A stretch of 45,998 bases of DNA, the filler included, from Sphacelaria rigidula (lineage: Eukaryota), in assembly GCA_964200075.2 (NCBI GenBank). It is 2 parts of 2 records of this genome, joined end to end, with 100 filler letters (N's around TTAATTAATTAA, not from the genome) between each part and the next. Parts side by side here need not be neighbours in the genome. Positions count along the whole stretch, not along the records: positions 23,061 to 45,998 come from CAXNAA020000298.1; 1 more part is not named here. The stretch is one strand, 5' to 3'. A program made the position numbers and the translations under genes. The notes beneath the pieces were generated by a model. That model had not been told where the DNA came from. It saw only the letters and a list, made by a program, of their open reading frames with translations, and searched no databases. This document shows positions 16,754 through 45,998 of this stretch, in pieces; positions within the stretch are counted from its first letter, which is position 1, and each line of letters starts with the position of its first letter.

Positions 16754-18456
16754 GAGAGTTTCGGAAAAAAAAATCAAAACTCATGGGGATACCAGCGAGA
16801 AACGACTGGATTGTTTGGGCTTAATCTCCAGGTTTGTTTTATCTTTTTCCACCACGTGGGTGTGGACCGTCGCCAACTTTTCAGGGTTTTGTATCTTCTG
16901 TTCCGAATGCAACGTGGTCGGTGTCATGAGTTGAAAAGGTACAAGTCGCGCCGTGCTTTTCTGCGCTTGTACTCTTCGCCCACCCATGCGGTGTTACCCG
17001 TACAGCACAGGAGAGCATGTACAGAGCCGTGCAACCATAGGTTGGGTGTTTGACTCCAGGGGGGAAAGACTCATAGATGTTTCGGACAATCCAACACACT
17101 CGCCGTGCGAGTGTATTTGGGTAAAACAGCATCAAGCAGTATGAATGAGCGTTATTTACTGCCAACACGCCCGTTCTGAAGATCGCTGCTCCTAAAATCG
17201 ATTCAATTTAGTGGAAGCAACGGCCAACAATAACCCCCGTCCTATCCTAGCATGACTTTAGTTGTTTATGTTGTCCCCGTACTGCTGAATACGCGACAGC
17301 AGTATGTTCGACTTAACGGTCAACGAGGGAAAGGGACTGCTGAACCCCTCTCGCGATAAAACATGAAGGCAAGCACCGCAGAAAAAAAGGTGGAGTACTG
17401 AAAAACGAACAAAAAATGAAAAAACTCCTGTCCTGGCAAGGGTGGGTGAAAAAAATATTCCTGGACCCACACTCACATTTTTCCATTTGGGGCCGATTGG
17501 GGGGGGGGGAGTGGCAGCACTGTTGGGATCGTGTCCGGGCTGGCAGGTTCCGGTTCCATACTAAATCCTATGTACTCACTGCAACCTAGCTCAACCACAA
17601 GTTACTTGGTTTTAGAATGGGTTGAACGGGGGAGAAGAGTCACTTCACTTGCAGAGCACACCCAAGCACAATCAGTGAAAAACAAAACAGCAGTCGCGGT
17701 CTCGGCAAGTCTTGGTTTGGTTTTGGGCTTGAAGTACGCTGTGTAAGCGAACATGAACCGCTTGATCCATTGCTTGATGCAACCTGATCATGAATCCTAG
17801 CAAACCCAAGTGAGTCAGATGACTATTATAGAGTTCGGCACCCGAACACCAGGACAAGCAGAGCCAAGGACTTTTCGCAAAAACGCAGCGAGACTAAAAA
17901 CTGAAACCGTCAAAAACGCGGTGGGGGGAAACGGGTTGATGAGTTGGGGCAAAAGATCGAGGTGGGGGAGGGGGGCAGTTGCGACGAACCTAAAACCCTT
18001 CACCCGTCTGTGACCGCAGCAACCACTGCAACGGCCGCACTAGTTTGGCTGAGGGGGTGTAGCCGGAGGATCTGCGTAATTTATTTGGCGTAATCATTTT
18101 TACTTGCTTGAATCATCTTGAATCATCCAAGAACCATTGATAAATTAATCGAAAACAACACTCAACACTGCTCACACCATTGAACACCATCCAAGTTTAT
18201 TCGTGAAACACACCAACAAACCACGCACGGCTCGTGCGCATTGTTTCGACAACGTGGTGCTGAGCAACTGACGCCCCAAAGGCTGATAAACAGGTGTCTC
18301 GTTTGAGAAAATAAATAAATAAGTCAGGAGCTGCTGAGGGGGGGGGGGGGGGGGGGGGGGTGGGGGGGGGCGGGGGATCTTTNNNNNNNNGGGGGCGGGG
18401 GGGTGGGGGGTGAGGGAGAGGAGGGAGGGGAGAGGGTGAGGGGGGAGAGGAGGGAG

Positions 18457-22960: not shown

Positions 22961-23060
22961 NNNNNNNNNNNNNNNNNNNNNNNNNNNNNNNNNNNNNNNN
23001 NNNNTTAATTAATTAANNNNNNNNNNNNNNNNNNNNNNNNNNNNNNNNNNNNNNNNNNNN
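22961..23060. other. Assembly gap with artificial six-frame-stop linker
   Basis: Exactly 100 positions: Ns with a central TTAATTAATTAA at 23005-23016. Confidence 0.95.
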
Positions 23061-25227: not shown

Positions 25228-28157
25228 CTGTACGCAGGCTCCATGATATGGTGAGCAGACGCGTAGGGTATTTTGTCCGCTGTTGTGTCTCCTACCCGCA
25301 GTCGGGCCAGGGTGCACGGATTTGTACCATGCGATTCAGGGCCGTCCTAAACGACGGGGTGGAAGTTGAGTTTCCCCCGTTTGCCCCATATTTTGACCAC
25401 TTCCCATAACATCAGACTGTGCTCACAGAGAAATTTTAAGGTACCACCGGTATGGGATTCTTAGAGAACTCATCGAGTCTGTCGGGTAAGCTATGATGGT
25501 GGTGTACAGAAATCCTTACCCGCAACCGGGTATATACATAAAAAGGGTGTAGCAAAAGACGATACCCGTACCCCAGGCAAGATTGAACATTTCGTACCGA
25601 TCGTACAGACCTGTTGGGTGCCGCTACGAAGAGGGTCTCCTAAAAAAAGTTTTTTTATGCCACCGTGAGGTTGACCCTACGTTTGGATTTTCGCCATTTA
25701 TTTTCGCCAAGAAAGTTTGGGTTAGGAAGCACTGTCGGCTCATGTATTTGTTTTAAAAGTTGAGTGGCTGTTGTTGCTGTGTGCGCCCAATTCGGTGTGC
25801 ACGTGACACGTGTGTCGACGACGCCGCCATCGGATGAGCGATGGCGGAGAGGAAGTGTCCTTCTTGTGTCTTTGCTCGGGGATTCTCCATCAAGCGGTCG
25901 AGAGATTGGCATCAGCAGCAGCAGAAGGGGGGCAGTGAAAAAGAAGCTCCGGTTGAGACGATGTACGACATGCATGCGTGTAATATCAAAGACACGCTGG
26001 CTCGAGTTGTCCCAGTTCTGCCCCAACAGTTAGTTTAGTGAAGAACGATGGCACGCCATGGCGGTTTCATACGTCGTATCGTTTCGATTCAACTGAACAT
26101 GATGCTGATTCAATTTTCCAGGTGAATACAAGCTGGACCAGATGACATTGATTTCTCCATGTTTTCGGGCCCGGTCGTGGGTAATTCGAGGAGTTATACG
26201 CTGAAAAGTTGACACATTTTAATCAACATGCGCAACATGTTGAGGGATGCCGAGAAGAAAAAACGAACGGAAAGTCAGAGCGATTAGAAGGCTCACCAAA
26301 AACCAAAAACCAGAGAAATTCAAGAACTCCGTGGGAATGAAGAAATACAGCGGCATCCGACCACATGTTGTGCGTATGGGCGTGGAGGAGATCCCGGTGA
26401 AGTTTCGTCGAAAAATTCTCAAAATTGGGCGCAGCCGGGCACTTGTTTTGTGACACCGCTGCGCCCCTCCAATCTAACTTATGAGGGAGACTTCAGTTAT
26501 GGAGGTCACGAGTTCGAATCCCAATATCTTCTCGTTTTTTCTCGTTCCGTCGCGAAGGTTATATATTTTGCAGCCCGTTTCTGTCCATTTTTTCTTCATT
26601 CAGCGGCGGCGGTGCCGTGTGTTACCAGGTTGGTCCGCAGTTCACAGCGATATGCTCAAGTCGACTTGCTTCCGTAAACTTGATGAGTTGTGGTGTGAAA
26701 TGCGAATAAGAGACAATTCTAAAAAATGAGGTTCAAGCCCAGAGCAGGTATTTCCCCACACTTTCAGCGATGGTGCCCCCTGACGTTCTCGTCGGCTTAA
26801 TGCCACTCTCGATCGCGAAGAAACTTTCTCAGCGCATTTTACTGGCTCTGTGAGCTAACAGCGCTGTTTCAGGCATTACTTCAGTTTTTTCCAAAACTAA
26901 TGGGCCGGCCGCATAACACGTGCCCGAGTCACAGGGACAACAAAAGTCAGGCCAGACAGACATGACATTACCTTGACCATGTAATCATCTTTACTTCTCC
27001 GACTTCCATGTATTCATACATCTTGTGCGCGTGCTATATTATGCTCAATCGTTGAACCGATAATCAACCCCTTCTAGACGCAATCATCATTCCGAAGAGT
27101 ACCTGAGGGCGAATATTTTTTATGCTCCTTCCGCATCTTCCGCCGCCACGGAAATTCCTCGACTCAGTTCAATCGATGTCCTGATAATCATTGCATTCTT
27201 CGCGCAACGCAGGCAAAATTTTCAAGTAATGATAGTATCCGAGGAATCAAGACAGCAACTTCTCCCATCCACCTCTTCCCCCCGTCGCAAACAAAAAAAT
27301 CTCAAGCAGATGAAACAGTACCATACTCGAGAGAACTACTACATCACGAAGTCCACTGATGACTCTCGACAATATCACCTCACCAACATCACTACAACAG
27401 TCCGACGGCCGCGGGGTTATACTTCAAGGGGTACACACAGCGTGGCAGGCGAAAAAAAAAGGCAGTAAAAAAAGCAATATATATACTCAAGTCAGTGGCC
27501 GTTGAAACCGAACGCCAAAACCTCGAGGCGCTAAAAACTACGCTGACATCAACGCACACAACAAGCTGCCGCCGGTCTCTTGTGGAGGCAACCTAGGGCC
27601 GTTAGGAAGGCACCGAAACAGGACCACTACAGTGGTAGGCGGCTTTTTGAGAAAAACGTCTCGTCTCAGCGGATAGACGTAAACGTACTCTTGAGCATTT
27701 CTTGGGAATACGGTCGTCGTGGTCGATTGCAATTTACGCTTCACCATCGTCAGCCCTTCCAACGCATCATTTCTTGTATCCGCTTCTTCGCCCCTCTGCA
27801 CTTCATCCATCGGCGGTGATATGGGTGATATTTCTGTGCATCCCTCACCACACCCCACACCGACATCACTCATGCGCTCTCTTTAAAAGCCATGTCCCCA
27901 TATCGAACGTCTTCTTGCTCGCCAGTCCCGATTTCCACAGTCCTGACAAGAGCCATCATCTTCCTTGCAATTGCGGGTTCATTTTCCCTCTTCCGCTTGC
28001 CCGCTGTTCAGCACAGCAAACGCGGAGGACGACAAAGCCTCGATATAAAAAACAAAGGACGCAGAGTGACCAACGATCTTGGTATAATACGTCGTACACA
28101 CACGACGAATCAAGCGCATACTAACAACCCAACTCAACGAAAGAGCACAAAAGTGCA

Positions 28158-29826
28158 TCAGCGTTTCTTGGGGCGACGACCCTTCACCATCCTCCTGCCA
28201 GCTTTGTTGGTATTCGGCTGGGCCTGTTGGGCCCCAAGATTAAACGCCCCTCCTGCATTCGCCGGGGGCCGCACCACAGGCGCTGCACCGGCCACGGGTG
28301 GGAATCCGCCTGCTGCTCCCACACCAACAAAGCCCCCGGTCGCGGTGCCAGCTGCCGGCGCCGTCGTACCAAACTGTGTCGATGGGGGCTGGACACTAAA
28401 ACCTGTGGCAGAGGGTGCCGCGGCTGCGCCGAAAGAAAACCCACCAGCGGTAGCTTGCGGGGCAGCTGAAGCGTCAGCCCCGGCAGCACCGAACAGGCCG
28501 GTGGCGCCGGGCTGAGCTCCGAAGGCACCCGCAGCGCCACCGCCGAAGGCTGTGTTTGCGAGGGAACCACCGCGCTTCGGCGCGCCTTGCCCGCTCGGGC
28601 CGAAGCCTCCGGCGCTCCCGGCAGGCGAAGCACCACGCTTCGGCGCTCCCTGCCCGCTCGCGCCAAAGCCTCCAACGCTTCCGGCAGGAGAAGGTGCCCG
28701 CACCCCTCCGACTGTGGATCCGAACGCGGCAGTACCGAAGACGGGGAATGTGGTCGGAGCAGGCATAGCCAAACCCGTCGAGGCCCCGGTGGCTCCAGCG
28801 GCGGGGGCAGCGGCGGGGACTGCGGTGGCACCGACCGCTGGAGCAGGGGCCGCACCCCCGAACAAGAACGGCGAGGCGGCCGGCGCCGGAGCTGGGGTTG
28901 CAGCGGGAACCGGGGCAAGAGCAGCACCACTGGTTGCGGCAGCAGCTGCAGCTCCGAAGGTGAAACCTGCCGTGGAAGATGCAGGAGCGACGGGGGCGGG
29001 GGTAGGAGCGGCAAAGCTGGTGAACCCCCCAGCACCCTTGCTCTTTGGAGGGCTCTTCGGAGGAGCGTCCGTCCCACTCTTGAAAAAGGATGAGGCAGTC
29101 GGCGCCGCCGTCACCCCCGCGCCTGATGCTGCGGGCGATGTCTTTGCGGCTGTCGATGTAGAAGACGATGTGCCCCCGAACGTGAAGCTGGCGGTTGTGG
29201 AGCCTCCAGGGGCCACGGCCGTGGCGGCAGGTGCTGCGGCGGCCGTAGCAGCGACATCAGCGACTGACGGCGTCTTCGACGCGGTGGAGCCAAAGGTGAA
29301 ACCAGCGGTAGCTGAGGCGGGTGCCGGCGCCGCCGTCACAGAAGTTGCTTTATCCGACTGTGCCGCCGCCACTGCGACAAATCCAGGATTTTCGGCGGCG
29401 GTGCCGAAAGCCGTGTCGGCCGGCGCGGTTGCGCCGGCGGCTGTAGAAGCAGGAGCAGAAAACTGGAAAGCGGTTCGCTTGGCAGGTCGCGCGGCTGATG
29501 CTGCTGCGGGATCGGACACCGCAGGAGCGGGGGCAGCAGCAGCACCCCCTGCTGAAGCAGCTGCGGCAGTACTTCCAAAAGAGAAAGCGGGCGTGGATGG
29601 TGTAGCGGTAACTGGCGCGGGGGTCGACAACGACGTGTCCCTGCTGGCGGCGAAGGAGAAGCCAGGGCCCGGGGTTGCAGGTGCAGCGGCGGGAGTTGGA
29701 GTCAGACTCGGAGCCGCAGTCGCAGTCGCAGTCGCAATTGCAGTCGAAGTCGGAGTCGGAGTTGGGGTGGGCGAAAAACCCTTGGTGTCGCTACTGAATC
29801 TGACGCTGGTCGCCTTCGGCGTTGAT
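28158..29826 (-). CDS. Nucleoporin terminal exon: FxFG repeats and basic tail
   Basis: Acceptor cgcAG; FSFG, FTFG (x3), FLFG, GGFG and AFG motifs; stop TGA at 28158. Confidence 0.92.
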
Positions 29827-32800
29827 CTGCGTACAACACGGGTGTACACATACACGGGGGGTGGGCATGACGTAAAAAAACTTTGACGAGAAAAGGAGGC
29901 ACGATTGCTCAACGACGGGTGATAGATGCGAATTGAGGGGGCTTTTGCACACACGAAGCGATGAACGCATTTGTTATCGCGGTACTGGCTTTAGGAATGG
30001 GCGCTGGCCAACTTCAACACGTGTGGCGTCTACGAGTTCACGTACCGAAACGGTGACACAATACGAAGAGTGCGAAGTATAGTTGTTCGTATCTCAAACA
30101 TGACACCGAATTGCCAACTTTGTAGTTCAGGCAGGAGGCGAGGGACACCGGAATTATTAATCAAGAGATGAATCCATCATACCTCTGAACTGAAGTTACG
30201 CCAAGAGATGAATCCATCATACCAAAAGGGGAAGGACTACGTGAATTATGTTGGGAGTATTTGATCGGTTGCGAGAAAGAGAGGAATTGGACACATGTGG
30301 TGCAAGCAAGACGAATGGGATCGGTCGAGTTGTGGTGATGCCTGTACAGTAGATCAACCACCCCACACCCATAGTACAGGGTACGCCAAGCATATGTTAC
30401 TCGGAGAGTATTTACACGCATATATGAAGTCCCTCCTACAGGTGCTCCGGTTGCCTCCGGAGCACCCTTCAGCCGGTGTCGGCCAATATAGAATATTCAC
30501 GTCCAAGGCTCAAACAAGAGGTGTGTGCGTGTGTGTGTGTGTGCACGCGCCGGGGAGAGAACTGAAATGTGTGCCCCTGCTTGAAGGGTGTCTGAGGAAT
30601 GATGAAAAGTGACGGGTGCCATAAATTTTTCCTGAGCTTCAACACGGGCGAGCCTTCCGAAGCGATTCTGCCGGGAGTTGGTGAAAGGACGACGCACTCA
30701 AGTCATCACGACGGGAGGCTTGGCGTGCAAGTCATGGGAGGTGCTTGAGAAAATCCGGACCGCGCAAATCTGTACGGCCACCGCACCAAGCACAGGAACA
30801 TAGCAGCGCCCGGCCAACAACAACTGACTCGGGTACGTGGGTACGAACGATGCGCGCGCGCCATCGTAACGCATACACAGCAGACACACAGCCGGGCAAA
30901 GTTGTACTGACAACCACACGATCAATAACGACACTACCGGGAAGCTCTGTACCGGACCAAATGGATTACAAAATTATCAGCACCGATACAGAGATCCCGT
31001 GCAGTCTTTCACCCGACGAGGACGAAGCCAACAAGTATACTATTATTGCCAGTAGCAAGGAAAAAAAAAACGAAAGGGAAAGAGAAAAAAAACCTTACCC
31101 GCCACCTGTAGCCACCGCAGATCCCGGCTCCGACCCAGGGACCGGCCCCGATCCAATGGTCGGGGCGGCATTGATTGCGGCCGGTGTGGACCGAGCGGGG
31201 GTTGACATCTTCGCTGCCTCGAGGTTGATGCGAACGTTATGGAGCGTCCTGCCGTTTCTAGCGATTCCGTCGGCAGGAAATGGGATGGGCACACACACAC
31301 GGGGGGGTGGGGGTGGGGGGGGGCGATTCGCTTCACTTCTCTCGTACCCTATCAACCTATTCGGCAAAGACGGGGGGCATAACGAGGACCGCAGTCAAAA
31401 CGACTTCGACACAAATCAACCACGAAACGACTTCGGAATCGGCTGCCTGGAGCATGGTGGGCAGCAACTCAACTCAAAACGTGCCTGTTCGGAATAAAAT
31501 AAGCGGGGTTCAGCTGTCCGTTGATTGTCTGTACTTGATTGACACATGCTAGCACGCGGTGAAGGAAAGACCAAAAATAAGCGTTTCAACCACAGTTATC
31601 TTCGGCTTCTATTTTTCCCTGCGTTGCATTCGCAATAAAATCGGAATGAATCGCAAAATGCCTGCGATGAAGAAAAAACACAACAGATCTCAACCCTATC
31701 CAAACACAAGAAAAAAGCATACTCACGCGAGAACGGCTCTAGGTTGCTTGTAGTATGGCGTTCCGAAGTTCTTCGGCCTTAGACACATGTCGCACTCCTT
31801 GGCGTCCATGTCGTAAATCCGCACGTAGCAGCCTCGGCATGTCCAGTAGTCCAGCTGTTACGGGGGGGGGGGAGGGAAAAAGCAAATAACATACACATGA
31901 GCATGCACGCGCACAAAAGGATACAGGGCAAGGTGTGTAGACCCAAGTGCACCGAACACACCACCGATAGTGTAGAAAAACAACGCGAAGGAAACAAGGG
32001 GGAAAATACAACAGCCCCGAGGGGGCACTCCTTCGAACCGGTGTGCCTGCCAAGTCGTGTGCAATATGAATGGACAGCAAACAGAAAAATATGCGGGGGA
32101 GGGACAACGATATCACTTTAGCTAAAGCAACGAGCTACTACTGTGGAAGCACGAGACAAATGGCAGCGTGTGAAAGCCAGCACGCAACACTTTCACCACG
32201 GCTGCAGAGCAGGAGAACAATATCATCTCACTTTTGTGGGTGCCTGCTGGGCTTCCGAGTCCGTAAAACGTACGCCGCCTGCCGCCGCCGACCGATAGGG
32301 GCGCGGCTTCATGCCCCCGTCGCCGCGTACATAAGGCGACTTCCCACCGAGATGTCGATCTGTCCCGTGCGCTTCGCGTCGCCTCTCGGCACCATCCGCG
32401 CTACTGTCATTGGGGCGCTTCGGCGTCTCTGAAGCTGCCAAGTCGCCGTCGTCGTTCTTCTTGTCTCCATCGCCGCCCGTCGTCACCTCGGCGCTACTCT
32501 TATCCTTGCCATCGCGGTCAATGCTACTACGGGTGTCCTGCTTTCGTCCATCATTCGCAGCGTGACCGCCGTCGGCGTCGTTGCCCCTGCCTTGTTTTAG
32601 CTGCTGGTCGAGGAGGACCTCGCTGTTGGTACGCGCGCGCTTGTTGCGATGCGGTGATATGCCCGTACTTTCAACGTCATCAGCAACTCCCGCCATCCCA
32701 ACGACCGCCGCGGGCGACATCTGCGTACCAACGGCCGTCGGCTTTCTCCCGTCTACCTCCATCTCCTTCCCTCCTTCTCCCTCCCCCGCCGGCGCTGACG

Positions 32801-35800
32801 CATCCTTTCCTTCATCATCTTGGACATACTCGTCCGTTTTCCGCTTCCGTGATTGCCGCCGGGGGGAAGGCGAAGCCGAACTAGAGCCACCACCACCGCT
32901 GCCCCGGCCACCACTGCCGATAAGACCATCGTCCGTCTGAGTCTGTATTTCGCGTCGTGCCCATCGCGATGGAGGAAGCTTGGCGGCAGGCGAAGCCAGC
33001 CTTGCCTTCCTCTCCTTATCGCGACCATCATTTCCTGCTCCGGGATCAACCTTCGTATTCGGGTACGGCACAGACAGCATTTTGGTGGGCAGTCGTCCCT
33101 CTTCCGCGTATGCTGTATCCGGCTGCACTGCCACATCTTCAATTACCGTGGTGGGGTTTGCAGAGGGCGGCGAGAGCTGTGTTTTCCGGGGGAGGGTTGC
33201 ACAAACAAGAGAAGACACGAGAGACATGAGAGTGACCAAAAATGGACGAGAACAGGAGCGGGCGGCGGGGGCGGGGGCGGGGGCGTATAGCCGCGTGGTG
33301 GATGAGGGGGAAACGTAGCCAGCGCCAGGGTGTGTAAATTCCGTGTGCGGCAAGGCGTGCAGGCCGCATAAAAACGCCTGATTTTGGGTACGCAGACCGA
33401 ACCTGTCTGTGCGGACCGCAACTTTTGTGCACACGTCGGTACTATAGTAGATTATAGCACTAGCCCTAACCCCTACGAAGTGTGTGCACGTACTCACCCC
33501 CACCTCGGCTCCGGTGTATTCATTTTATTATACGTCCACTAATCCATTCAACGTTTCAAAACTTTCTGACCATGCCATACCACCCTATCCTACGCGTGCA
33601 CTACGATACGTAATGCATGTACGTGCCCGCGTACTCTCCCGCTTCAGTTACGCCACAACATCACGCCCATGACCCTACCTACCAACAAAAATAAAAAAGC
33701 GGGCACGAAACTTTGGACCAGCGTCGCACACCGTACACAAAATCTTCACCTCATCAGCGATATCGTATCTGCACTGCGTTCAATTACACACGAACAGTGA
33801 CTCGAAGAACCACTATTATACTGAAGTACAAAACCAAGTAGCACCGCTGGGAAAAAGGACAAGAGCCGCTCCTCGTGCTCGCTCCTAGTCAAATAATTTC
33901 AGACTGCATGACTGAATCTTTTATCCTTCACTCTTCGCGGCGCGACAAGGAACACTTTGAGACACATCACAGCCGCCACACAAACTCACCCTGAGCGGCG
34001 TTCTCAGGCTCGCGGCGTCATCCAGCAAGCTTATCACGCGGCGCGCCATTGCCGCAGGGGAACGCAGCGACCCCAAGCTGTATCGAGCGGGCGTTCTGCG
34101 GTTAGCAATGTCGTCCCCTCCCACAGCCGGCGGCTCCTCGTGTACCCTGCTCCGCGGCGCGCCGCCGCTACCTTCTCCACGAACGTGGGTCCGCGGCGCT
34201 CCCGCCCATGGCGTCCCTTGATTGGCTGTTGCAGCCGGTTGCCACACACGATCTCCACCAGGGGTTGAATGCGCGAAAGATCTGTGATGGTGTTGCGTTT
34301 TGAGTTGTAGAGGCAGCCCGACGGGATGAGCGGGCGATAGGGAAGCACTTTTCGGTGAATCTGGAGTGGTTCAAGGTTTTCCGCTAAATTTTATTCGTAC
34401 TGTTAACTTTGCGGCTGATACATCAAAGTACATCTCTGCGTTGTACCTAGTTTTAGTTTTTGCTAGAACACGATGTGGTTTTTTCGTGAATATGCTTTTG
34501 AGCTGTATGCCTTCCATTTCCATGAAGGAGGATGGGGGCGGAATGTCAAATGTCAACACTTGATAGTTCTTTGCACAACAGGTGATCAGGCACTATACGC
34601 GCGATGCGGTGCGACAACAGAAAAAACTGACAAGCCGAGTGTCCTGTCACACTTCCGTTACAGTTGGTGAATTAGGTCAGGGAATAGACCAGAAATGTTC
34701 ACACCTGCACCGCACCGTGAACCAAAAATCCATCCTGTATTGCCTGCACATACCGAAATGAGAGTACACCGACAACTTTCAGCACATCCCTGCTGCCGCT
34801 TCTGTAATTGTAACAAAGGAAGGTGTTAGCAAACCTCTCGAGCAGTCATCGGGAGCAACAACTATGGACCCCACTGTTGGTAGTAATGAAACATGAAGCA
34901 GCAGTCTGCTAGGGTAACGTCTGCCGCTGCGTGCGATGATGTACGTGTATGTGCTGTGTGGGCATCCCAGGCGCAGATTATGCAAGCGCTGTGCTTTTGA
35001 ACAACTTGCGTATAAAAAAAACTCGCTGTTGTTCAGTTCTGTCTTTTATACCGTGTTTTCTTCATCTTCCACAAATTTGAGAGCCGGACCTGAACAAAAT
35101 TATTTTCACCTAGGTAGCCACCATCTCCCCGGTGGTAGCAAGGAAGGATTGCCTACCTCGTGTGCCAGCAAGGACGCGTCAGGTCTCCGTTAGCCTCCAC
35201 CTCTACAGGTCTACATCTCATGTTTGTTTGTTCTTTGTGACATTTTCCACATTTCTTCAACAAGTGCAACCGACGTCACCACGCCAGCACTTCCGTAAAA
35301 AATAATAACCTCCCTCCTCTTCACTTCCACACGGAGAGCACTGTAGCGCGCGCACATACGACGGCCCACGACCAAGTTGAACCTACTCACCGTTGCTCCC
35401 TCAAAGACTGCCGCCGCGCCGTGGCCCGCGCCTTGTGGGCAGGAGTTAGCAGCCCGTCGGGATCTCCTCCGCGCGTCACCCGAGGAGCCAACATCTCCCC
35501 GCCTGCAACCGATGACCGGCGCTCATACGGCGCTCGCGATCTTACGCCATCCCTGCTCTCCGAAGCGCCCCTGGCGCCGGCACCCGCATGGCTCTTCAAA
35601 AACTCACCACCGCGAGGGGGCGGGGGTAGCATGAGCGGCGAATTTTGAAGCGGGGCCGTCGGCACTAGCTCGGAGCCCGGCGGGGCACCCCTTCGTCGAG
35701 CGATGGGTGCAACGATGGGCGGCGATTGGTTGTTGCTACTGCCTGCGTTTCTCGACACACCAGCGCGTACGGAGCGTGCTGCTTCCGGCTCGTCTCGAAA

Positions 35801-37369
35801 CGCATCTAACGAACCTGCGGAACTGGCACTTGATCGTTGAGCGTCGCCGAGTGCGATATGCGCGAGTGAAGTGGATGCCGGCGCCGCTTCTCCAACATCA
35901 CCGAATTTGCCGCCTCCCGGTGCCGGCCAGGAGCGGCCCATTGTCTCCTTGTACTCTCGCAGCACTTGCACGCGGAGGCGAGCGACCGAACGGGATTCCA
36001 TCTTGGACAGAAGGTACATGGCAGCCGAGGGCGGCAGGTTCCTCCTGAACCGTAGTGCGCGCACCAAGTCTCTCCCCTCCGACGCAGTGAACGGGTCATC
36101 TCCTTCGTCATTGGTAGCTGTGTTTTTCCCTTCATCTTCCGTCTCTTCGAATCGCGTCCCGCTCTGGCGGCGGCCGCCGCCACCCAGCACCGCTGCAGCC
36201 GCTGCGTCACGCCGGCGTTGAAGTATACTTCGCCTCGGGTTGCGGCTGTCGCTCGACCCCGCAAAGATTGCATGCCCATCAGAGGGGGAGTTTCTGTTGT
36301 CATTGTTGTTGTTTCGGGGAGCCTGCGGTGTGGTCGCCTCAAGAGGGCGATTGCCGAACACAAATGTCTTTCTTTGTCCATCGAGACTGTCAGTGCTTGG
36401 GCCCGGAAAGTTATAACCTGCAACCGTGCCCTCTTCCAGTGACTCGCGGCCTCCACTGTTTTGATGGCTGAAACCACCAGCATCGACAGCGTGAACATCT
36501 CCCATACCCACTCCCTCCCTCTCTTCACCGAGAGCAGCACCCATCATCGAGCGCTGTTCACCATGCCCGAAGGACGCCCGCGCCGGCCGGTACGCCGTGC
36601 GCGTAGCCCTTTGCCCCTCGCCTCTCACCAACATTGACGAACGCCGTCTCGGCCTCGACCTCAACCTCGCCTCGTCACGCAAAATTTGCCGTACCCCGGG
36701 ACTAAAACCTCCAACGTTGGTTCCGCCGGCGATGTTATGGAGCTCGCCAACCCCTAGTCCGTTGTCAGGGCTGCTGCCGAAGCCTCCTCTTCTCACACTG
36801 GACACGTCTCCTCGGGGGGTGAAGCCGCCACCGCCGTCTCCGGGCCTCCCCGATTCTCGGGTGTCTTCACCGGCGGCCGCTAGAGCGCCGCGACCACCGA
36901 CACCGCCACCGCCGCCACTCGTGCTGCTACGTCCCTTCGCCTTTCCAGCCACTGCCGTCGGCTGCCATTGGTCTCGGTTAAGCTCAGGCGACCACTCTTC
37001 TTCATCTAGGCCTGCATCATTTTGCGCTTCAGCGGTGGCGCCGCCGCCGCCGCCGCTCGGGGTGACGTCGTGATCATTTTCATCATTAATGCTGCTGCCC
37101 GGACTGTCGTCATCCCTGTCGATGCCAGCAAGGAGTTTTTTACCGGGGGTCAACATACCTACCACGCGGCCGACGACCCCGCTCACTCTTCCGTATATCC
37201 CTTTACGGGGCTGCTTTGCAGCCGGAGTTTCCGGGGCAGAGTCGGCATTTCCATCGTTGCCTGTTTCTGGTTCGGGTCGACGGCGTTTGTTGGAAGTTCT
37301 CGACCTCGTGTTGTTGCTGATGCGGGGCGAGTTGGTATTGATGTCATCTCTGTCGTCATCCGATTCCAT
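28158..37369 (-). CDS. NUP153: Nup153/Nup1-like nuclear-basket FG nucleoporin, spliced: join(37369..35391, 34281..33990, 33176..32232, 31854..31727, 31257..31099, 29826..28158), about 1723 aa
   Basis: Six exons with GT-AG boundaries and matching phases (2, 0, 0, 2, 2), total 5172 nt. Disordered N-terminus, C4 zinc finger, Ala/Pro/Thr-rich FxFG repeats, and a C-terminal RRMVKGRRPKKR tail resembling the basic tails of Nup153, Nup1 and Nup124. The symbol reflects architecture, not proven orthology. Confidence 0.8.
31099..31257 (-). CDS. Nucleoporin exon 5 (NGRTLHNVRINLEAAK...)
   Basis: Acceptor gctAG, donor GG|GTaagg; phase 2/2. Confidence 0.75.
31727..31854 (-). CDS. Nucleoporin exon 4 encoding a RanBP2-like zinc finger (WTCRGCYVRIYDMDAKECDMCLRPK)
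   Basis: Acceptor aacAG after a C-rich tract, donor GC|GTgagt; W-x-C-x2-C-x11-C-x2-C pattern; this frame is missing from the ORF track. Confidence 0.8.
32232..33176 (-). CDS. Nucleoporin exon 3 (charged, disordered, NLS-like RKRK)
   Basis: Acceptor cacAG, donor AAA|GTgaga; 945 nt, phase 0/0. Confidence 0.85.
33990..34281 (-). CDS. Nucleoporin exon 2 (SFAHSTPGGDRVW...MARRVISLLDDAASLRTPLR)
   Basis: Acceptor cacAG, donor AGG|GTgagt; phase matches both neighbours. Confidence 0.8.
35391..37369 (-). CDS. Nucleoporin coding exon 1 (MESDDDRDD..., low-complexity, basic clusters)
   Basis: About 660 open codons; ATG at 37369 lies after an AG acceptor near 37396 (possible 5'-UTR intron); donor CG|GTgagt. 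Confidence 0.85.
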
Positions 37370-40300
37370 GATTAGCACGGGGCCTGGAGGAAGACCTAGA
37401 GGCACAGCGGCGCGAAGATTGTGGCCAGGGAGAAAGAGAGAACAAGCTGAGCGAACACCCCAACGGGATACAACAAACGAGATGAGGCAAAAACGTGCGC
37501 AGCGCTAGGCATGGATAGCTTCGGTTTCGGTGCTGACGGCGGAGTACTTTCTCACGCGTGCTACACTGCGGTCAAAGCCTGTGTAGTTGGGACACGTGAA
37601 AACAAAGGGTCCAACGAACGCAGCACAGCGCGCGTTTTTCATTACATCGGCGTGACACATGGCATGGCCTCGACCTCACCACACCCTGTTGTGCGGTTGT
37701 TTGCGGTACCGGTACAGGTGTATAACTTTCCGGATACACGAACAGACCAAAGGAAACAACAACCAGCACCAGTAGGGTTTGAATATCTACCTTCGGGCTA
37801 TGCGCGCAACTCACGTATTGAAAAATATTCCATCCTGATCCCGAGTTCCTGAGGTACAGCCATACCCGGGAAGGTAGCAGAAGTTGTGCCCTTGACACAA
37901 CTATTTTGAAAACATCGGCAACCGAGCACGCTCTGCCGTGAGAAGAGGAACCCGAACTGAACTTATCAGAATTCCCCATGCGGCACCAAAAAAGCAATCG
38001 ACACGGTAATATTGGCCAACACTCCGGCACTCGTATCACAGTACAGCCCGGCATGCCTACACCACGGTAATGCGCCACACCATGTTTCCCGCACGGAAGA
38101 CGGGAAAGCCTTTGTACCCACACACAAGGACTGCTGAGAGTTAACTTCTGTACACTCTGTGGGTATGGGAGGTTCGGGGATGACAACCAAGCCTCCACCA
38201 CATAAACGGCATATTATCCGAAAACCTTCGATATTATGCAGAGGTTAAACCGGGCATACCTCACATGTAGAGCACTAGCTGGTGTCGAACACTCGGATGC
38301 AGCGTAAGCAGTCCGATTAGCTAGCGTGAGCCGTTGCTTGTCGACAGCGCAGTTGCGAGAGTGTGACTACAGTTGGCATTCTGTCCTCATGCGGGGATAG
38401 GGACACATATATTAACATCGTACATCTGGGAGCTTCCTTGTATACTGGTGGTTCGTTACACTAGTTTGTAGTTTGTAATTTGACTGTGTTGGTTCCAACT
38501 CATGTAGTACACTGCCGTCGTACAGTACCATACAAGACGGTGATGTACAAGATGATTGAATGCACCAGTCAACGTACTCATCGCGCACCATTATCTAGTG
38601 CCAATAGGTGTGTGCATGAACCCATCTTGCTGAATATACGCTTCAAAAACATCCCATGTAGCACATCCCTGGAAATGCTCTCCTCATGGAAATTGTAGTT
38701 CTACTTGGAACTCATAGATCCGACTTCAGAGGGTTTCGGTTCTATCTCGATGGAACCAGGATCCTCTCTTCCGTCCATCACCAAGTGGGTACTCATGCGG
38801 AGGACTGAACCACTGTACTCTCAAGCGGATTGTCCATCGTAGACAAGGAGCCTTAACCCTACACCAACACCAATATGGAAGTGCATGGAGGCCCTAATAC
38901 CGGAAATGAGAAGGTAGACCGAGAAGGTGTGCGCCTGCCCCTGCCGCCACTCCAGGCATCGTCGTCACCGCCGCTCCAGGCAACCGACTCCGAGTACTTC
39001 GACCTGAACGTCCTAAAAGGGTGTGTGTATGTACTGGCTGAACTATTGTGCTTTTTTCTACTTCAACAGACAGTACAATAGCTAGGCTTATCAGTGGGAC
39101 ACCCCAGCCAAATTTCGATCTCAAATTTCCACGCAAGCGCTGCAGCAGCAGAGATTGAAGTGCGGCGGCCCCTGTTGTTGGCGGCAGCTATCCACCACCG
39201 ACAACACATTGGATTACAAAATGAGATGCCAGCTGTACAGCGTACTCTACTATGAGAGGCACAAGGAGTTGTTGTCGTTGCTGTGTTGTCGTCGTCTTGG
39301 AACCTGGTCTGTATCTGACGCTCACAGCTCAAACTGAGTATTTTGAGAACGCCTGTGCGCGCAGTTCAAGACAAACTTTGATTTGGTGCAGCGCCTGGAA
39401 GGGGCGAGGATGGGGAGGGTGGGGGCTCGACGATGTCGTATGGGACGGTAGGGTAGGGTAGGGTAGGGTAGGGTGCGGTATGATACGGGTTTGCTGACAT
39501 GCGCATGCTTCTTTTTGATCATGTTTAGATCTGTGCAATGCATTGCTCGACAAACACAACAGCAAGGCCAGCAACTGGCGGAAGTGGATGCAACTACAGC
39601 GGTCTTGTTGTGACTGTCGGTGTTGGCTTTTGCATTTCTGGCGCGTTGGCTTCTACTGACCGTACCGACCCCGTCAAGTTTCTTCCTTGAAATTATCCAC
39701 TAAATAGAAACACACCGCGTTAGACCTATCCGAGATGTCTTCCATGTTCCTACAGGTAGCATCTACATGAAGTAAATAGTGTCCTGGGTGACGTACGAGT
39801 GATGCCATGATAACCCTTCCGCCGGAAACCAGCCTCAAAACTGTTACAAAGGAAATGGTCATACAGCGCATGATGCTTGTGTAGCTGGTATCATGATGCG
39901 CCTCGAATGGGCTGCATTGGCGAAAACGATCCCGAGCGTGGGAGTTCCCAGCTGCATGGTGTGCTCGGCTTCTGTCATTTTGATCCGCATGAAGATCTTA
40001 CCTCCTCGAACCAGCCAATTTTCTGGAGGGGGGGGGGAACCTGTCGCGGTATCACTCGTACATGTATGACATACGGGAAACGACAACAGCGTCGTAGGTG
40101 CAACACAGTACAGCAGTACAACAGACAGTAGTGTACAAACGGTGCGATCAATACACGGGATATATCAGGATATATCCGGTCCTTTTTTACGCTGCTGTAC
40201 TGTTGATACTGCGAGTACCCGGAGGATGAAGGGTACGAACTATCATCCGTGCGAGTAACAGACCGCAGTACAATACACCAGTACAGCGCGGATAGTGCAG

Positions 40301-42878
40301 ATAACAGTAGTATTACCATAGCATCGATGATAATCATTGTTGATAATCATCACTGCATCATTGAGACAGGAAATCGAGTACAGTAGTACGTTCTTGTGGT
40401 CAATTCCTTGCTTGTCTGCGGCCGTAGGAGTACTCTTAATGCGTAAATTTATCTTAATCCTGCACGTGCTGTCGTCCTGCCCAATTCTTGCTAAACGCGC
40501 GTGTTGTATGTTGCATGCAGCGTGGTGGCAACCAACACAAAACCCTTCAAGGACCGATTTCTTGTGTGGATCGGGATCCGGAAGGTCCTGTTCTTTCCGT
40601 TCAATCGACAGTGGTGGCTGGCAAGGGTGAGCGAGGGCATCATCGACAACAGTACACACACACACACACACATACACACTACACGCCGCGCATTTCCAAT
40701 CCTCTTCGGAGTGCAGAACACATGTTTTGCTGTTCGGCACAAGCTGTATGTATACATGACCGAACGGTAAATCTCTACCCCAACCGTTCGCACGCGGTGG
40801 AATGTCGAGAGTTGTTCGTGATGCATGCAGTCCTTTCCGACCAAGCACGCTGAGTATTCAAAGTGGAACTTAGGATTGGCGATCGGGGACACAGGAGTAT
40901 ACGTACCCGTCGTGTCGCCTAGTGTTGACCCTCGACTGCTAAGGTGGGTGGGTGGTCGGTAGTCATCCGTTGAATTGGCATCATTTTAACTTGGAAAATG
41001 AACCCTAATACTCAGATGACCCGCCCTGGCTGTCAAATCGTCGACCCTTTCATATCCAGAGTCGGTCATCTATTGGGTCGCATGCGTGACCCGTTGAATG
41101 CGAGAATGGGCCATCCGAGCATTTCAGTAATCTCTCGCGAAGTTTTTTCTTGCCGATTCGGCCATATGAGCCACTCTAGCTGTCGAAGGGTTGGGTACAG
41201 CAACCACCTTCAGTCCCAATCCGTGAAGAATAGATGCCGCGACAGCCAGATATTTCACTTTCTCCCACGGCGCAAAATAAAATACCCGGGCATGGTCGGG
41301 AATTTCGAATAAACTGAACATTTACATGATTTTCGAGTAAAAAAAAAGAAGGCGCTTCTTCGTGAAACCTTCGATCGGCCGAGGTGGTCCTTTGGTGAAT
41401 GGGGATCGCACCGTCACTCGAGAGAGGACTGTAAATGATGCTGATTCACAACTGGACCACCTTCGGCGGTCGAAGGGTTGAAATTACATTGCCTGTGGAC
41501 AATAACATAGGACGCTATCATAGCAATGTACCGCATATTATTTGAAGATACACACGCATATAGTTCGAACAAGAGCTGCACGTACTGTTTTTCGAAAAAA
41601 AAGCTTGGAAGCAGCAGCTTGCTCTTCTTCCTGTGTGTATGTACTCGCAGATGAGAAAGTCTACCACCCACCAACACTGGCATCTCTTGCATTAACGATA
41701 ACAACCTCAGTGGCTGGACCAGCGCTGCAGATGTATGTCGGAGACCATATGTGCGGCAACCACGGGAGGTTGCCACACGTGACGCCGGGACGCATGTGCC
41801 TCCATAGTGGCCCCAAGCCAGCCCCCCCGGAGGGCTGAAGAAGTCGTCTCGATATTTTCCCCGCCTTTACCGCGAACTAGTAGGCACCCATTTCTTTCAT
41901 TAGACCTAAAACTTTGGTCGTATACCTATGGTTGACAACATGACTACTTGATTCTGAATGTGAGAAAGTTCTGAAACAAATCATGGTTGACGTAGCTCGT
42001 CCAGAACATGTTTTTGTCGAAATCGGGGCCTGCAGCGTCGATTTGAGGACTGTCAACGCACCCTTTGCCTAGGGGAATGTGTGTACCCCCCTTGCCCGAG
42101 GGTCTTGTACGCCTTGGCTTGGGGATATGGTTAGGGGTATTGTTGGTTTGTTCGAAAAAATCAACCACAGATATACGACAAAACTTTATGTCGCCTCATT
42201 TTTTTTCCCATCGGCGATTTCCACTACACCCGCACATGTTTTCGCCGCGGCAAAAAAAAACGTGCGCGGAAAAAAAAAACAGCGGTTGCTGCACGCCGCA
42301 CGCCGCAATTGCCGCATTACACACCGCGCGCTTTTCCTCATTTTTCAGTCTAGAATGTGTGGTAGCGCACGGGCGCAGCAGCACCCTCTATCTGAAGCGC
42401 TGGACTGGACGATAATATTCAAAGTTCGATCCAAACCGTAAGAGCGTGTCTCCGGATCTCCGTGACGCGCCTCCCCCCCCCCCCCCCCTGTGCGCACGTG
42501 TGTGTGTACGTACATGGCACGATGGTTATTATGCCGACCACGATGCGAGAAATTTATTCTTAGCGAACTAAACGGACATCCCTCCTTGCTTGTGAAAAAA
42601 ACAAGTTGGCAGATTGCCAGATTCACAGGTCTACCCCCCTCCGGTGCGTGGTCCCATGATTGCCGAAGTACGCCCCTACACGCTGGCTAGGTGTCGGATA
42701 GAAACGAGGGCTTGGATGAGTACGTATTACAGTGAGGAGTCGGATAAAACGTAGGCCTGTAAAGTGCAAGCTGTCAAAATTCCTAGAAGCTTCCTTATAT
42801 GGAATCGTGGGTCTGAGGGATGCTGCGATGGCTCTCTCCCCCCCAAAGAGTGAGTAAGGCTGTGTCTTCCCACATCGG

Positions 42879-43024
42879 TTTTCGATCGAGAAGGTGCGGC
42901 GTAACACAAATATGCCGATGTGATAGCTCATTATTTCAACCATCCTGAAAACAACTACGATAGTTGAAATCAGGACCTATCAGATCGGCATATTTGTTTT
43001 CCACCGCACACTTTCGACCGAAAA
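42879..43024. repeat. About 146-nt imperfect hairpin
   Basis: Arms 42879-42944 and 42959-43024 (ACAAATATGCCGAT.TGATAG...ATTTCAAC.ATC) with a 14-nt loop. Confidence 0.85.
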
Positions 43025-43034
43025 ATAATGCGCT

Positions 43035-43302
43035 AAGGCCGGACGTTATGGCAACAGATCTTCGGCCCCGGATCTTCAGAGTTTGAAATAATTCGTGTGA
43101 GGCCGGATCTTATGACACACAGAGTTTCGCCCCACGGATTGTTCACTTTTATGGCGTTTGAGCCACTTTTTGACCCCCAAACAGGGAAAACCGCCAACAC
43201 ACGTCTTGAACACTTTTTGGCGATTTTCCCTGTTCGGGGGTCAAATGTCCCGAGGTGAACAATCCGTGGGCCAAAAATTTGTTTGCCATAACATCCGGTC
43301 TA
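43035..43302. repeat. Fold-back repeat: direct copy plus inverted pair (about 43098-43147 / 43254-43302)
   Basis: CCGGAT.TTATG.CA...GCCCACGGATTGTTCAC and its reverse complement. Confidence 0.75.
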
Positions 43303-43564
43303 ACACAAAAAACGGTATTAACACGGTATGATAAAAAGAAAAAAAAAGGAAGCACACCTATACAGTACAATGGTACGGACACAAGCACATCATACACACA
43401 CCATCAACGCCTCTCACACACATGAAAAAAATCGATCGTGGCAGATGCGTAACGAGCACCGCAGACCACCCTTCGAGGCCCACACTGTGACACAGCATCT
43501 CTTATCTAATCTAATCACAAGGTACATGGCTCAGACCTTCCGAGATGGCCAGGGCAGGGGCGCC

Positions 43565-43636
43565 GGGGGGGGTACTCGTTCATTGCTTGCCAGTCATTTG
43601 ACTATTGAACATGCATCCCGTTTGAGACGGAGCACC
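43565..43636. repeat. Family Y unit (forward); an inverted unit lies at about 45252-45325
   Basis: GGGGTACTC...TTGCTTGCC...GAGACGGAGCACC; 45272-45325 reads GCGTGGTCAATGGTCGAACGAC...ATGAGTACGCCCC. Confidence 0.75.
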
Positions 43637-43984
43637 GTCCACACTCCTGCCCTGACAGGGGGATGGAGGGGGATGTAATAATGATCTTGCGTACCGTAGT
43701 CATGAGACCATTGACCTCGTATTCCTGAAACGCCGGGACGGAGAACGACGGGTTTCCGCCGGAATAGGCTCGCAAACAATCACCAAGCGCGAAGGGGGGA
43801 CCGGGGGGGTATACTACACACTATTTGGGGTGGAGAAACAAGAACAAAAACTAAACTAAACAACGAGCGGAATTACAAGAGGATTGATTGCCCTGCTTGC
43901 GTGCGACACGTATTCGGGTGCAGGACCGCCCTTCTCGTCCCCTCCCCCTTCCCCCCCCTCCCCTCCCTCAAGGTCGTTTGTTAC

Positions 43985-44125
43985 CTCGCCTCCCAGAACA
44001 GTGGTGTTGTCCGCAGATAGCAGGAGAATGCCTCTTCGTACCCAGGGTGCCACAACCAACAGTTTCAAGCCGGGCGGAGGGTCTGCGGAGAGTCCCTGGA
44101 TACGGCGGTACTCGAACGCCGCAAC
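43985..44125 (-). CDS. RMI1: Exon of an RMI1/TDRD3-family N-terminal OB-fold protein
   Basis: VAAFEYRRIQGLSADPPPGLKLLVVAPWVRRGILLLSADNTTVLGGE matches the family pattern EY..I..L....PPG.K.....V..G.LLL...N..VLGGEV. Acceptor gacAG, donor GAG|GTaac, 141 nt. Other exons were not identified and TDRD3 is not excluded. Confidence 0.75.
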
Positions 44126-44790
44126 CTGTCGGAAACGAATATATATATATATATATATATATAGCACGGAAAAACAAATCCGAAAACATGAAACAGAGAA
44201 AAACGTTTCCCCTACAGGGTAGGTATAGTACAAGGTAGTAGGGATAATGATTGACGGGGGTGGTGTGGTTACAATAGACCCTCTTGGAATGGATCATGGT
44301 GCGTGCTCGTATTGATTGATCGATTGGTTGGTTGATTGATTGTCGCACATTAACTGATCAGCCACGACAATATATTGCATCGTCAAAAAGTGTACTATAA
44401 AACGAGCAGTATCGACTATAATGGTGCCTCTATTAGAGATAGACAAATAGATTCTATGCTGTACATCTTTCGACAATTTAATCCACAGTGCAGTCATGAT
44501 CCAGGGTGTGCTCCAAATCCAGCCCGTTGCCGGTAGATACAAGATAGGCGTAGGCACCGAAGGTAATTTATCGAATGGAAACACTCGCCGGAGAAAATTT
44601 GGGAAAAAATAGATCGGGTGTCTGTATTGTGTATGCTATGGATGTGTATTTGTAGAGATGTGTTTCATGTTGATTCTTTTGATGGCTTCAAAATGCGTAC
44701 GAGCTTTCCTTTTCTTCTTCCTGCTGAAAGGAAGCAAGAAAACAAAAAATACAGCGAGGGGTGGCATATCTCCCCACTCGGGCACCACAG

Positions 44791-44822
<32 letters not shown>

Positions 44823-45539
44823 CACCCAAACAACACCGACCAACACCGACACCAAGAAAAAAGAGAAGAACACGCAGCCCCGAGNNNNNNNNNNTCCTGT
44901 TGAAAGGAAGAAAAAAAACAAAAAATACAGGGGGGGGGGGCATATCTCCCCCCCCGGGCACCACAGCCCCCCCCCCCCCCCCTTCGGCTTCACTTGAACA
45001 TATTATACATTCACCGGAATACAGGATAAAAATAGTATGGAGGTATCCGCACGCCGTTGCATCAGCTATAGGACTTGATTCAACGTACGTAGACAAACTG
45101 GTCGGGTGACCTGATCTTCTTCTGCAACCCCCCCCCGCCCGCCTGTACGGCGAAACAAGACGGGGACAAGATTGGTAATAAATTTTTGTGTAGTGTATGA
45201 AAGAAATGTAATGAGCACCGAAATGTTGGAGGTGTCTCCACGAGGAGTAGGAGCGGCCGCCTCGAAAGGGTTGCGTGGTCAATGGTCGAACGACCAAGGC
45301 AAACAACAAATGAGTACGCCCCCCTCCCAGTACGGTGCGGCGCGGTATCCGGGAAACCCCAGAACTCAGCCGCTCTTCCTCACTGCTATTTTTGTAACGA
45401 GCACACCAGTTCTGATCTTTCTGACCCGCGGTCAACTCGTTTCATTTTACTCGAAGACACTGTATGCATCGACTGCTCCGAGTCCAGCAACGCACTTTCG
45501 GCACGTGAGCCAACTTCTCTCTCAGAAATCTGAGTACGT

Positions 45540-45680
45540 CTGACAGCCTGATGACTTGGGTTTAGAGTACCCCCCCCTCCCCTCCCCTTCCTAATGTGAG
45601 CTGGCCACATCTGACAGCCTAACTACTTGGGCTTTTTAGAGTACCTTCCCCTCCCTCCCCTTCCTCGCCTAATGTGAGCC
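45540..45680. repeat. About 71-bp tandem duplication
   Basis: CTGACAGCCT...ACTTGGG..TTTAGAGTACC...CCTAATGTGAGC occurs twice. Confidence 0.85.
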
Positions 45681-45998
45681 TACAACAAAAAATATGTGGT
45701 GGCTGGACTGAAATAACCGCAATCCCTTGCTCGCAGTGCTGCTTGTTTACTGTTGGTGTTTGCGTGTGTTTCACAACTCGAGACCTCCGTTTTGATTATG
45801 ATCTTTATTTTTTTTTTCGGCGGGCAAAACAAGTACGAAACACGATACCATGGGCTTCAGCGATCGATCGCAAAGGCAAAACTGTCGGTAACTTTGTCAA
45901 TCCTTTCCTGCCCCCCCCTCCCCGGGTCATATTTCGCCCTTGCTGGTCTCAAGGCAAAATTCTGTTCTCGTATCGTACGAGCTGGGCCGCCTCGCCTG

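Follow-up and report, generated by a model that had tools for sequence, protein, structure and literature searches.

In passages of recent reviews the basket nucleoporins NUP153, Nup1 and Nup60 are described as largely unstructured and poorly conserved proteins that share FG (Phe-Gly) repeats, linkers, zinc-finger (ZnF) domains and amphipathic helices (PMC13242641; PMC8700311), and the amphipathic helices are said to anchor the basket (PMC13242641; PMC8700311; PMC11392808). Basket nucleoporins evolve fast and are routinely missed beyond animals, fungi and plants, and our literature search found no description of the nucleoporins of brown algae. Here we analysed a 45,998-nucleotide (nt) stretch of DNA from Sphacelaria rigidula (GCA_964200075.2; the window), whose minus strand carries a six-exon gene for a protein of 1723 residues. 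Because the layout of this protein fits the review descriptions of basket nucleoporins, and because its neighbours in a language-model search (the atlas) are Nup153 clusters, we consider that the gene probably encodes a basket-type FG nucleoporin working like Nup153, Nup1 and Nup60. Judged from its sequence, the protein resembles Nup153 in layout only, and we do not file it as a member of the Nup153 family.

We observed the gene model and its splicing directly, and likewise the modules of the protein with their order and conservation. An earlier sequence-only reading had proposed six phase-consistent exons giving about 1723 residues, and transcript contigs bear this out to the base. We aligned contigs from four public runs to positions 26500–39000: X1, X2 and X3, which all belong to one study and are flagged, as a guess, as RNA, and X5, which is DNA-like (share 1.00). 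In each of the three transcript-like runs one contig runs through all six exons of the minus strand and leaves out five GT..AG introns, following window positions 35391–37393, 33990–34281, 32232–33176, 31727–31854, 31099–31257 and then the last exon up to 29826, with no differing letter, and jumping 1109, 813, 377, 469 and 1272 bases. The jumped pieces all end in CT..AC on the plus strand, which is GT..AG on the minus strand; the five coding introns start with GTGAG or GTAAG and end with AG. None of the five joints is found in X5, although that run covers the introns, so that what the joined contigs represent is processed transcript and not a DNA variant. When the exons are joined by script, the spliced coding sequence (CDS) from ATG 37369 to the stop at 28158 is intact, with 5172 nt and one terminal stop. 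We take this ATG as the start because the spliced 5' untranslated region (UTR) has a stop codon in frame with it, nine codons ahead. The six exons are one expressed gene, and the concern that they might belong to separate genes can be dismissed. Exon 4, which encodes the finger and for which skipping had also been considered, is present in the contigs of X1–X3; since contigs drop rare variants, a minor isoform that skips it could still escape these data.

Several further observations concern the same transcripts. Upstream of exon 1, contigs of X1 and X2 join 37393/37395 to 38258/38260, a cut that becomes GT..AG when shifted by +2. The spliced 5' UTR (about 37396–37402 and 38260 onward) has a minimal in-frame AUG-stop upstream open reading frame (ORF) 33 nt 5' of the start codon, with two more ATGs, both out of frame, farther upstream. 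On the 3' side, the contigs that reach beyond the stop begin at 26740 (X1 record 1), 27452 (X2 record 5) and 27849 (X3 record 8). Short contigs of low depth (6–12, versus 164–230 on exons) lie within intron 4 (31340–31705) and intron 3 (31943–32204) in the transcript-like runs and are unspliced precursor or DNA traces. We rejected as an isoform a 120-nt skip joint (36916 to 37037) present in all four runs; the joint and its loose ends comprise only 20 letters per side and lie between GGC-repeat runs (36895–36916 and 37037–37056) that encode Gly stretches of exon 1, and we take it to be an assembly-graph or repeat artefact.

The host had been supposed, conditionally, to be a stramenopile, and this proved right. 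A search with exon 1 against a 5.8-billion-sequence set found one long protein, P0001 (1449 residues), which is 100% identical and annotated as 'unnamed protein product [Sphacelaria rigidula]'; the Sphacelaria lineage is Stramenopiles, Phaeophyceae (brown algae). A coccidian parasite as host, which the composition had at first suggested, was discarded after this match. P0001 is an exact suffix of our 1723-residue model that starts at an internal Met and is without the first 274 residues (36548–37369); two conserved features described below, KRRR cluster and amphipathic block, are lost with them. The upstream ATG is supported by the transcript contigs and by six homologous, exon-1-sized ORFs of other assemblies that start at their first Met (P0004, P0005, P0008, P0009, P0010 and P0015), and the 274-residue N-terminal part is real coding sequence.

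A HMMER search with residues 275–1168 against 1.84 billion representatives gave 20 matches at E ≤ 0.001. We set aside P0014 and P0021 as spurious bacterial repeat proteins; the remaining 18 of the 20 appear to be fragments of this gene in other assemblies, each about the size of an exon, and this search found no relative beyond brown-alga-like sequences. One partial relative comes from Scytosiphon promiscuus (Phaeophyceae), and one cluster member, P0022 (1634 residues, on a 5-kb contig), is a relative over the full length, 53% identical overall. In the alignment P0022 keeps all the modules of the window protein in the same order, and the proposed succession of disordered N-terminus, C4 (four-cysteine) finger, FxFG domain and basic tail is real. 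Word-based searches with exon 1 and with residues 400–960 and 135–485 of P0001 returned P0001 alone amid about 8000 low-complexity candidates that filled the results, and are weak evidence of absence. A metagenome scan with the two-sequence full-length alignment (A2) gave 147 pattern matches, none of them confirmed.

The FxFG repeats and the basic tail can both be read from the spliced CDS, as the sequence-only reading had it. The whole protein has 20 FG motifs, of which 15 lie in the 555-residue last exon, where same-composition shuffles average 5.1 and 0 of 2000 reach 15, so that the FG content is far above chance. The C-terminal domain contains six FxFG motifs and one GLFG, and an extra FxFG (FVFG) stands at residue 336. 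Ala makes up 29% of exon 6, Gly 14%, Pro and Thr 12% each, Ser 10% and Phe 6.7%, and no more than 38 residues (6.8%) are charged. P0022 has seven FxFG motifs at corresponding positions. At the level of motifs, then, the C-terminal FxFG-rich FG domain that characterises Nup153 is present here and retained in P0022. As a separate observation, the FG domain contains a 63-nt tandem duplication at 28564–28693 (2.1 copies, 85% matches) that encodes SPAGSxGGFGxSGQGAPKRG twice and is a single copy in P0022.

These features bear on the alternative that the protein does not belong to the pore at all and is a disordered nuclear regulator, whose finger binds RNA or protein (of the ZRANB2 type or another small C4 finger) and whose Phe-Gly pairs arose by chance in an Ala/Pro/Thr-rich tail. 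Such a protein would be in keeping with the lack of any match from nucleoporin profiles, with the low-complexity Ala/Gly runs in which the brown-alga proteins examined here are rich, and with the description of RanBP2-type and similar fingers as binding single-stranded RNA too and as occurring in all domains of life (PMC8034646, in part). Against it, Gly stands after Phe at three times the expectation from composition, two FG domains that are just 44% identical agree in the spacing of their FxFG motifs, in their low charge and in where the motifs lie, and the nearest atlas clusters are nucleoporins. We regard a role away from the pore as improbable, and a basket-type FG nucleoporin as the better account of this domain.

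The finger is central, as had been claimed, and contains all four cysteines of the 1723-residue protein and four of the five in P0022. Its exon is the best-conserved region (72% identity to P0022), neither the finger Trp nor any of the four Cys differs between the two full-length sequences, and conservation continues across the exon 4/5 junction into NFGTPxxxQPRAVLxNGRTLHNVRINLEAAKM. The finger of P0022 keeps the Asn of the RanBP2-type consensus, which is given as W-X-C-X2-C-X3-N-X6-C-X2-C in a passage of PMC4916219, and has a loop of X7. Sub-threshold Pfam matches of exon 4 are zf-CXXC (E = 0.013) and the IFT121 finger (E = 0.024). Among structures, a NOT4 RING match at E = 6 and matches to seed globulins and light-harvesting-complex proteins were not taken as evidence of identity.

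The roughly 1070 largely disordered residues that precede the finger carry short conserved helices. AlphaFold2 gives a pLDDT (predicted local distance difference test) below 50 for 540 of the 659 exon-1 residues. The basic cluster KRRR is found in six of the seven complete exon-1 sequences, the window's own included, while P0009 has KRNR; it is a candidate nuclear localisation signal (NLS). The block that follows is kept in all seven. Within it, the 18-residue segment from residue 56 has a hydrophobic moment of 0.50, the highest of the 642 windows in exon 1 and a value reached by only 10 of 5000 same-letter shuffles, and the amphipathic motif is the top window in six of the seven sequences. 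Its polar face consists of Gly, Ser and Arg and resembles the description of lipid-packing-sensor helices in a passage of PMC8700311.

Farther along, AlphaFold2 predicts exon-1 helices at residues 379–396, 429–440, 447–455, 460–480 and 643–657 with pLDDT of about 67–77, and the three from 429 to 480 fall on the conserved block at residues ~425–480, which may be a docking motif. In exon 2 the motif SFAHxTPGGxRVWxxAAxxxQGTPWA is conserved in 7/7 sequences that cover the exon. A second exon-2 motif could correspond to a helix of human Nup153, residues 305–320, that is reported to sit on a Tpr homodimer in AlphaFold-Multimer predictions, much as Nup60 does on Mlp1 (PMC11392808, Stankunas and Kohler; in part), and whose sequence is printed within residues 301–330 in a preprint (10.1101/2023.05.13.540659; in part). 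We scanned this printed 16-residue sequence, ungapped and with BLOSUM62, over the seven algal sequences. The best window coincides with the conserved motif (…ARR[VI]IS.L…) in six of them, as a weak match to the printed segment, and lies outside it in P0019; for the short exon-2 pieces, 3 to 78 of 2000 shuffled queries reach the score. We treat this sequence likeness as a lead and not as evidence of homology. Exon 3 has the conserved short blocks LPTKMLSxP, KLPxSxWA and SPHRNKRxRTNSEVLLDQQLK and is probably a disordered linker.

In the atlas search P0001 found Nup153 clusters at ranks 1, 2 and 9, its best match scoring 0.89 with 172 of 256 features shared, and the ten best named matches all belong to one family or clan. 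We use this match as a lead only, because its score is under the tool's line of 0.9 and shuffled proteins can equal it.

A number of results weigh against a basket nucleoporin of Nup153 kind. As to the atlas, one third of shuffled proteins also gave ten concordant matches, and residues 1–1000 of P0022, from which the finger and FG domain had been removed, scored only 0.78. The sequence-only reading had suggested checking the protein against zf-RanBP and Nup153 profiles, and the outcome was negative: no Pfam family reached the cut-off for the six exons, P0001, P0022 or P0006, and PF00641 (zf-RanBP), PF08604 (Nup153), PF10599 (Nup_retrotrp_bd) and PF13634 (Nucleoporin_FG) had no match at E ≤ 10. 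An N-terminal signature of the Nup153 family was likewise absent from the profile results, with no Pfam family found for exons 1–3, P0001, P0022 or P0006 at E ≤ 10, and exon 6, P0001 and P0022 gave no match to the Nucleoporin_FG profile at the same threshold. The density of FG motifs in the last exon is modest (15 in 555 residues). The finger could not be identified as RanBP2-type. PF00641 is without a match at E ≤ 10 in the six exons, P0001, P0022 and P0006, and searches with the exon 4 sequence and with profiles of the two full-length sequences and of the finger block matched no nucleoporin or RanBP2-type finger chain in the PDB at E ≤ 10. Set beside the consensus cited above, the window finger reads W-X-C-X2-C-X3-I-X7-C-X2-C, with a loop of X7 where X6 is expected and Ile in place of Asn. 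The AlphaFold2 model of the finger block, built from three rows, has a pLDDT of 38.5 and is unusable for fold comparison. By its sequence the finger is a genuine C4 module under selection, with a spacing near that of RanBP2, and is not assignable as RanBP2-type. In the N-terminal part, the AlphaFold2 model of exon 1 predicts no helix at the amphipathic segment; failure to fold in such a model is expected of amphipathic motifs of this kind, yet it lends no support. The score of the human 305–320 segment was reached by 297 of 2000 shuffled queries in the window protein and by 96 of 2000 in P0022. Finally, the conservation of finger, FG domain and tail is measured on only two full-length sequences.

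An FG nucleoporin may also sit elsewhere in the pore, either on the cytoplasmic filaments, like Nup358, Nup214 or Nup42, or as a lineage-specific channel nucleoporin. An FG domain and a finger do not by themselves fix the side of the pore, animal Nup358 also offers zinc fingers to Ran (PMC13242641, in part), and the N-terminal part alone resembles merely generic Nucleoporin_FG clusters, at 0.78. What speaks for the basket is that no Ran-binding domain, tetratricopeptide repeat (TPR), cyclophilin, beta-propeller or CCCH-finger profile was found at E ≤ 10, that a KRRR cluster and amphipathic segment at the N-terminus followed by a linker with short helices are traits of basket nucleoporins in the review passages, and that the top atlas clusters are Nup153 and not Nup358 or Nup214. 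We judge another site in the pore unlikely and keep to the basket.

Location at the pore, partner binding and common ancestry with Nup153 are candidate features, by analogy of layout. As a basket nucleoporin, the protein might work as follows. The KRRR cluster would carry it into the nucleus, where the Gly/Ser/Arg-faced amphipathic segment (residues 56–75) would fold onto the inner nuclear membrane at the pore. Short helices in the disordered stretch of about 1000 residues, among them those at residues 425–480 and the ARRVISLL motif at 735–750, could dock the outer-ring Y-complex and the Tpr/NUA filament. The single C4 finger and the conserved block after it would bind a partner; Ran-GDP is possible by analogy, and RNA or another protein equally so. 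The FxFG/FG domain, uncharged and about 550 residues long, would extend into the channel and bind transport receptors, and the Arg/Lys tail might add a receptor-binding or NLS site.

The sequence-only reading took fingers on Nup153-like proteins to be an animal trait, and this premise is weakened. Look-alike clusters with PF00641 occur in the atlas in Basidiomycota and Zoopagomycota, a lead only; being in two fungal phyla, they argue against an animal-only finger. Nup153 candidates in 'chromalveolates' were tabulated by Neumann et al. in 2010 (PMC2951903, in part), and because of that earlier list the present protein is no surprise of kind, while the lineage itself is unstudied. Descent from a finger-bearing ancestor is a tentative idea. 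Equally tentative is the fuller version, that brown algae keep an ancestral Nup153-like basket nucleoporin with five modules in vertebrate order: NLS and membrane helix, Tpr-binding helix, Ran-type zinc finger, FxFG domain and basic tail. A somewhat stronger case, plausible and still short of probable, can be made for convergence, in which a basket protein specific to the brown-alga lineage came by its small C4 finger independently and is an analogue of Nup153, not an orthologue. No sequence profile ties any part of the protein to Nup153, the finger spacing deviates from the RanBP2 consensus, relatives of residues 275–1168 came only as brown-alga-like exon pieces, and plant Nup136 counts as a functional homologue despite having no sequence similarity (PMC4010787, in part). 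Common descent is favoured by a module order equal to that of Nup153, by the consensus Asn in the finger of P0022, by the fungal clusters as a lead, and by the 2010 candidates.

The membrane segment, the ARRVISLL helix and the finger with the block that opens exon 5 offer ways to ask whether the layout of Nup153 is inherited from an ancestor or arose by convergence; if it is ancestral, a finger loop longer by one residue would be a natural variant for probing what the finger must recognise. In a multicellular stramenopile, the conserved motifs could also help to mark the pore on its nuclear face. The candidate at this locus is full-length and verified by transcripts, and it amends a public model that is short of 274 N-terminal residues.

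Table 1 Features of the basket-type nucleoporin candidate gene, in window positions
Feature	Position	Strand	Basis
Upstream non-coding 5' UTR exon (3' part only seen)	38260..38352	-	X1 (95 letters), X2 (35 letters)
5' UTR intron, 864 nt, GTATGC...CTCTAG	37396..38259	-	joint in X1 and X2, not in DNA-like X5
Exon 1, CDS from ATG 37369, residues 1-659 + 2 nt	35391..37395	-	contigs, spliced CDS, homologous ORFs
Basic cluster KRRR, residues 28-31, candidate classical NLS	37277..37288	-	exon-1 alignment
Conserved block APETPAAKQPRKGIYGRVSGVVGRVVGMLTPG, residues 46-76, candidate membrane-binding amphipathic helix, like an amphipathic lipid-packing sensor (ALPS)	37142..37234	-	alignment, hydrophobic moment
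Conserved helical block, residues ~425-480, PFTxxExRDLVRxLRFRRxLPPxAAMYLLSKMES...	35930..36097	-	alignments, AlphaFold2
Intron 1, 1109 nt, GT..AG	34282..35390	-	contigs
Exon 2, residues 660-757	33990..34281	-	contigs; homologues P0011, P0012, P0017, P0019, P0006
Motif PAAMARRVISLLDDAA, residues 735-750, candidate Tpr/NUA-binding helix	34011..34058	-	kept in 7/7 exon-2 sequences
Intron 2, 813 nt, GT..AG	33177..33989	-	contigs
Exon 3, residues 758-1072, charged, probably disordered linker	32232..33176	-	contigs, alignments
Intron 3, 377 nt, GT..AG	31855..32231	-	contigs
Exon 4, residues 1073-1115, zinc-finger exon	31727..31854	-	contigs, spliced CDS
C4 finger WTCRGCYVRIYDMDAKECDMC, residues 1076-1096	31783..31845	-	all 4 Cys of the protein; conservation
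Intron 4, 469 nt, GT..AG	31258..31726	-	contigs
Exon 5, residues 1116-1168, opens with conserved block NGRTLHNVRINLEAAKM	31099..31257	-	contigs, alignments
Intron 5, 1272 nt, GT..AG	29827..31098	-	contigs
Exon 6, coding part, residues 1169-1723 + stop, FG domain	28158..29826	-	contigs, spliced CDS
Basic C-terminal tail AGRRMVKGRRPKKR	28161..28202	-	spliced CDS; P0022 ends GGRRIVRARRSGKRN
Region 3' of the stop, at least partly 3' UTR	26740..28157	-	same transcript contigs

In the rest of the window, the ten longest stop-to-stop ORFs outside the gene (1–26000 and 39000–45998) gave no Pfam family at E ≤ 0.01, and Rfam had no match on the window. Runs of N lie at 18383–18390, 22961–23004, 23017–23060 and 44885–44894. 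At 26500–26916 the summed contig depth is about 99,000 in the DNA-like X5, versus about 64 elsewhere, and many alternative short joints (26519–26626) and loose ends occur in all runs. The pattern suggests a repeat of very high copy number immediately past the 3' region of the gene.

Among the known systems, Nup42/hCG1 is a short protein with an N-terminal CCCH finger followed by FG repeats. The finger of the window protein is, in contrast, C4 and central (residues 1076–1096 of 1723), and zf-CCCH gives no match. Unlike Nup358/RanBP2, the window protein has no Ran-binding, TPR or cyclophilin Pfam domain at E ≤ 10. Yeast Nup1 and Nup60, with which the comparison is by description, are not known to carry a zinc finger. 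In the passages cited they are likened to an intrinsically disordered 'suspension cable' that has an amphipathic helix at its N-terminus, short linear motifs for the Y-complex and Mlp1 and then FG repeats (PMC11392808; PMC8700311), a layout that the candidate modules of the window protein would match. Plant Nup136/NUP1, a basket FG protein, is a functional homologue of Nup153 that lacks sequence similarity to it, and the parts of the papers at hand report no finger (PMC4010787; PMC8421043); it is described as unique to higher plants and was again compared by description (PMC4010787). MacNup153 and MicNup153 of Tetrahymena are FG nucleoporins in another lineage of SAR (stramenopiles, alveolates and Rhizaria), where proteomics and localisation, not a search by sequence, led to their identification (PMC5450191). 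The word 'zinc' is absent from the main text of that paper, and this comparison too is by description.

Metazoan Nup153 agrees with the window protein in the order of its modules, from an N-terminal region for targeting, in which an amphipathic segment lies, through a long disordered linker that carries short helices and a zinc-finger region to a C-terminal FxFG/FG domain of low charge and a basic end. Human NUP153 also has a short Arg/Lys C-terminal tail. The window protein differs from Nup153 in having one zinc finger, versus the four described for Nup153 in a passage of PMC13242641, in a finger loop one residue longer than the RanBP2 consensus, with Ile for Asn, in the absence of PF00641, PF08604 and PF10599 matches, and in an FG domain that is very rich in Ala (29%). 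Exon 2 has the part-motif ARRxxxxL in common with the printed segment of human Nup153 at residues 305–320, and the nearest atlas clusters of the window protein are those of Nup153.

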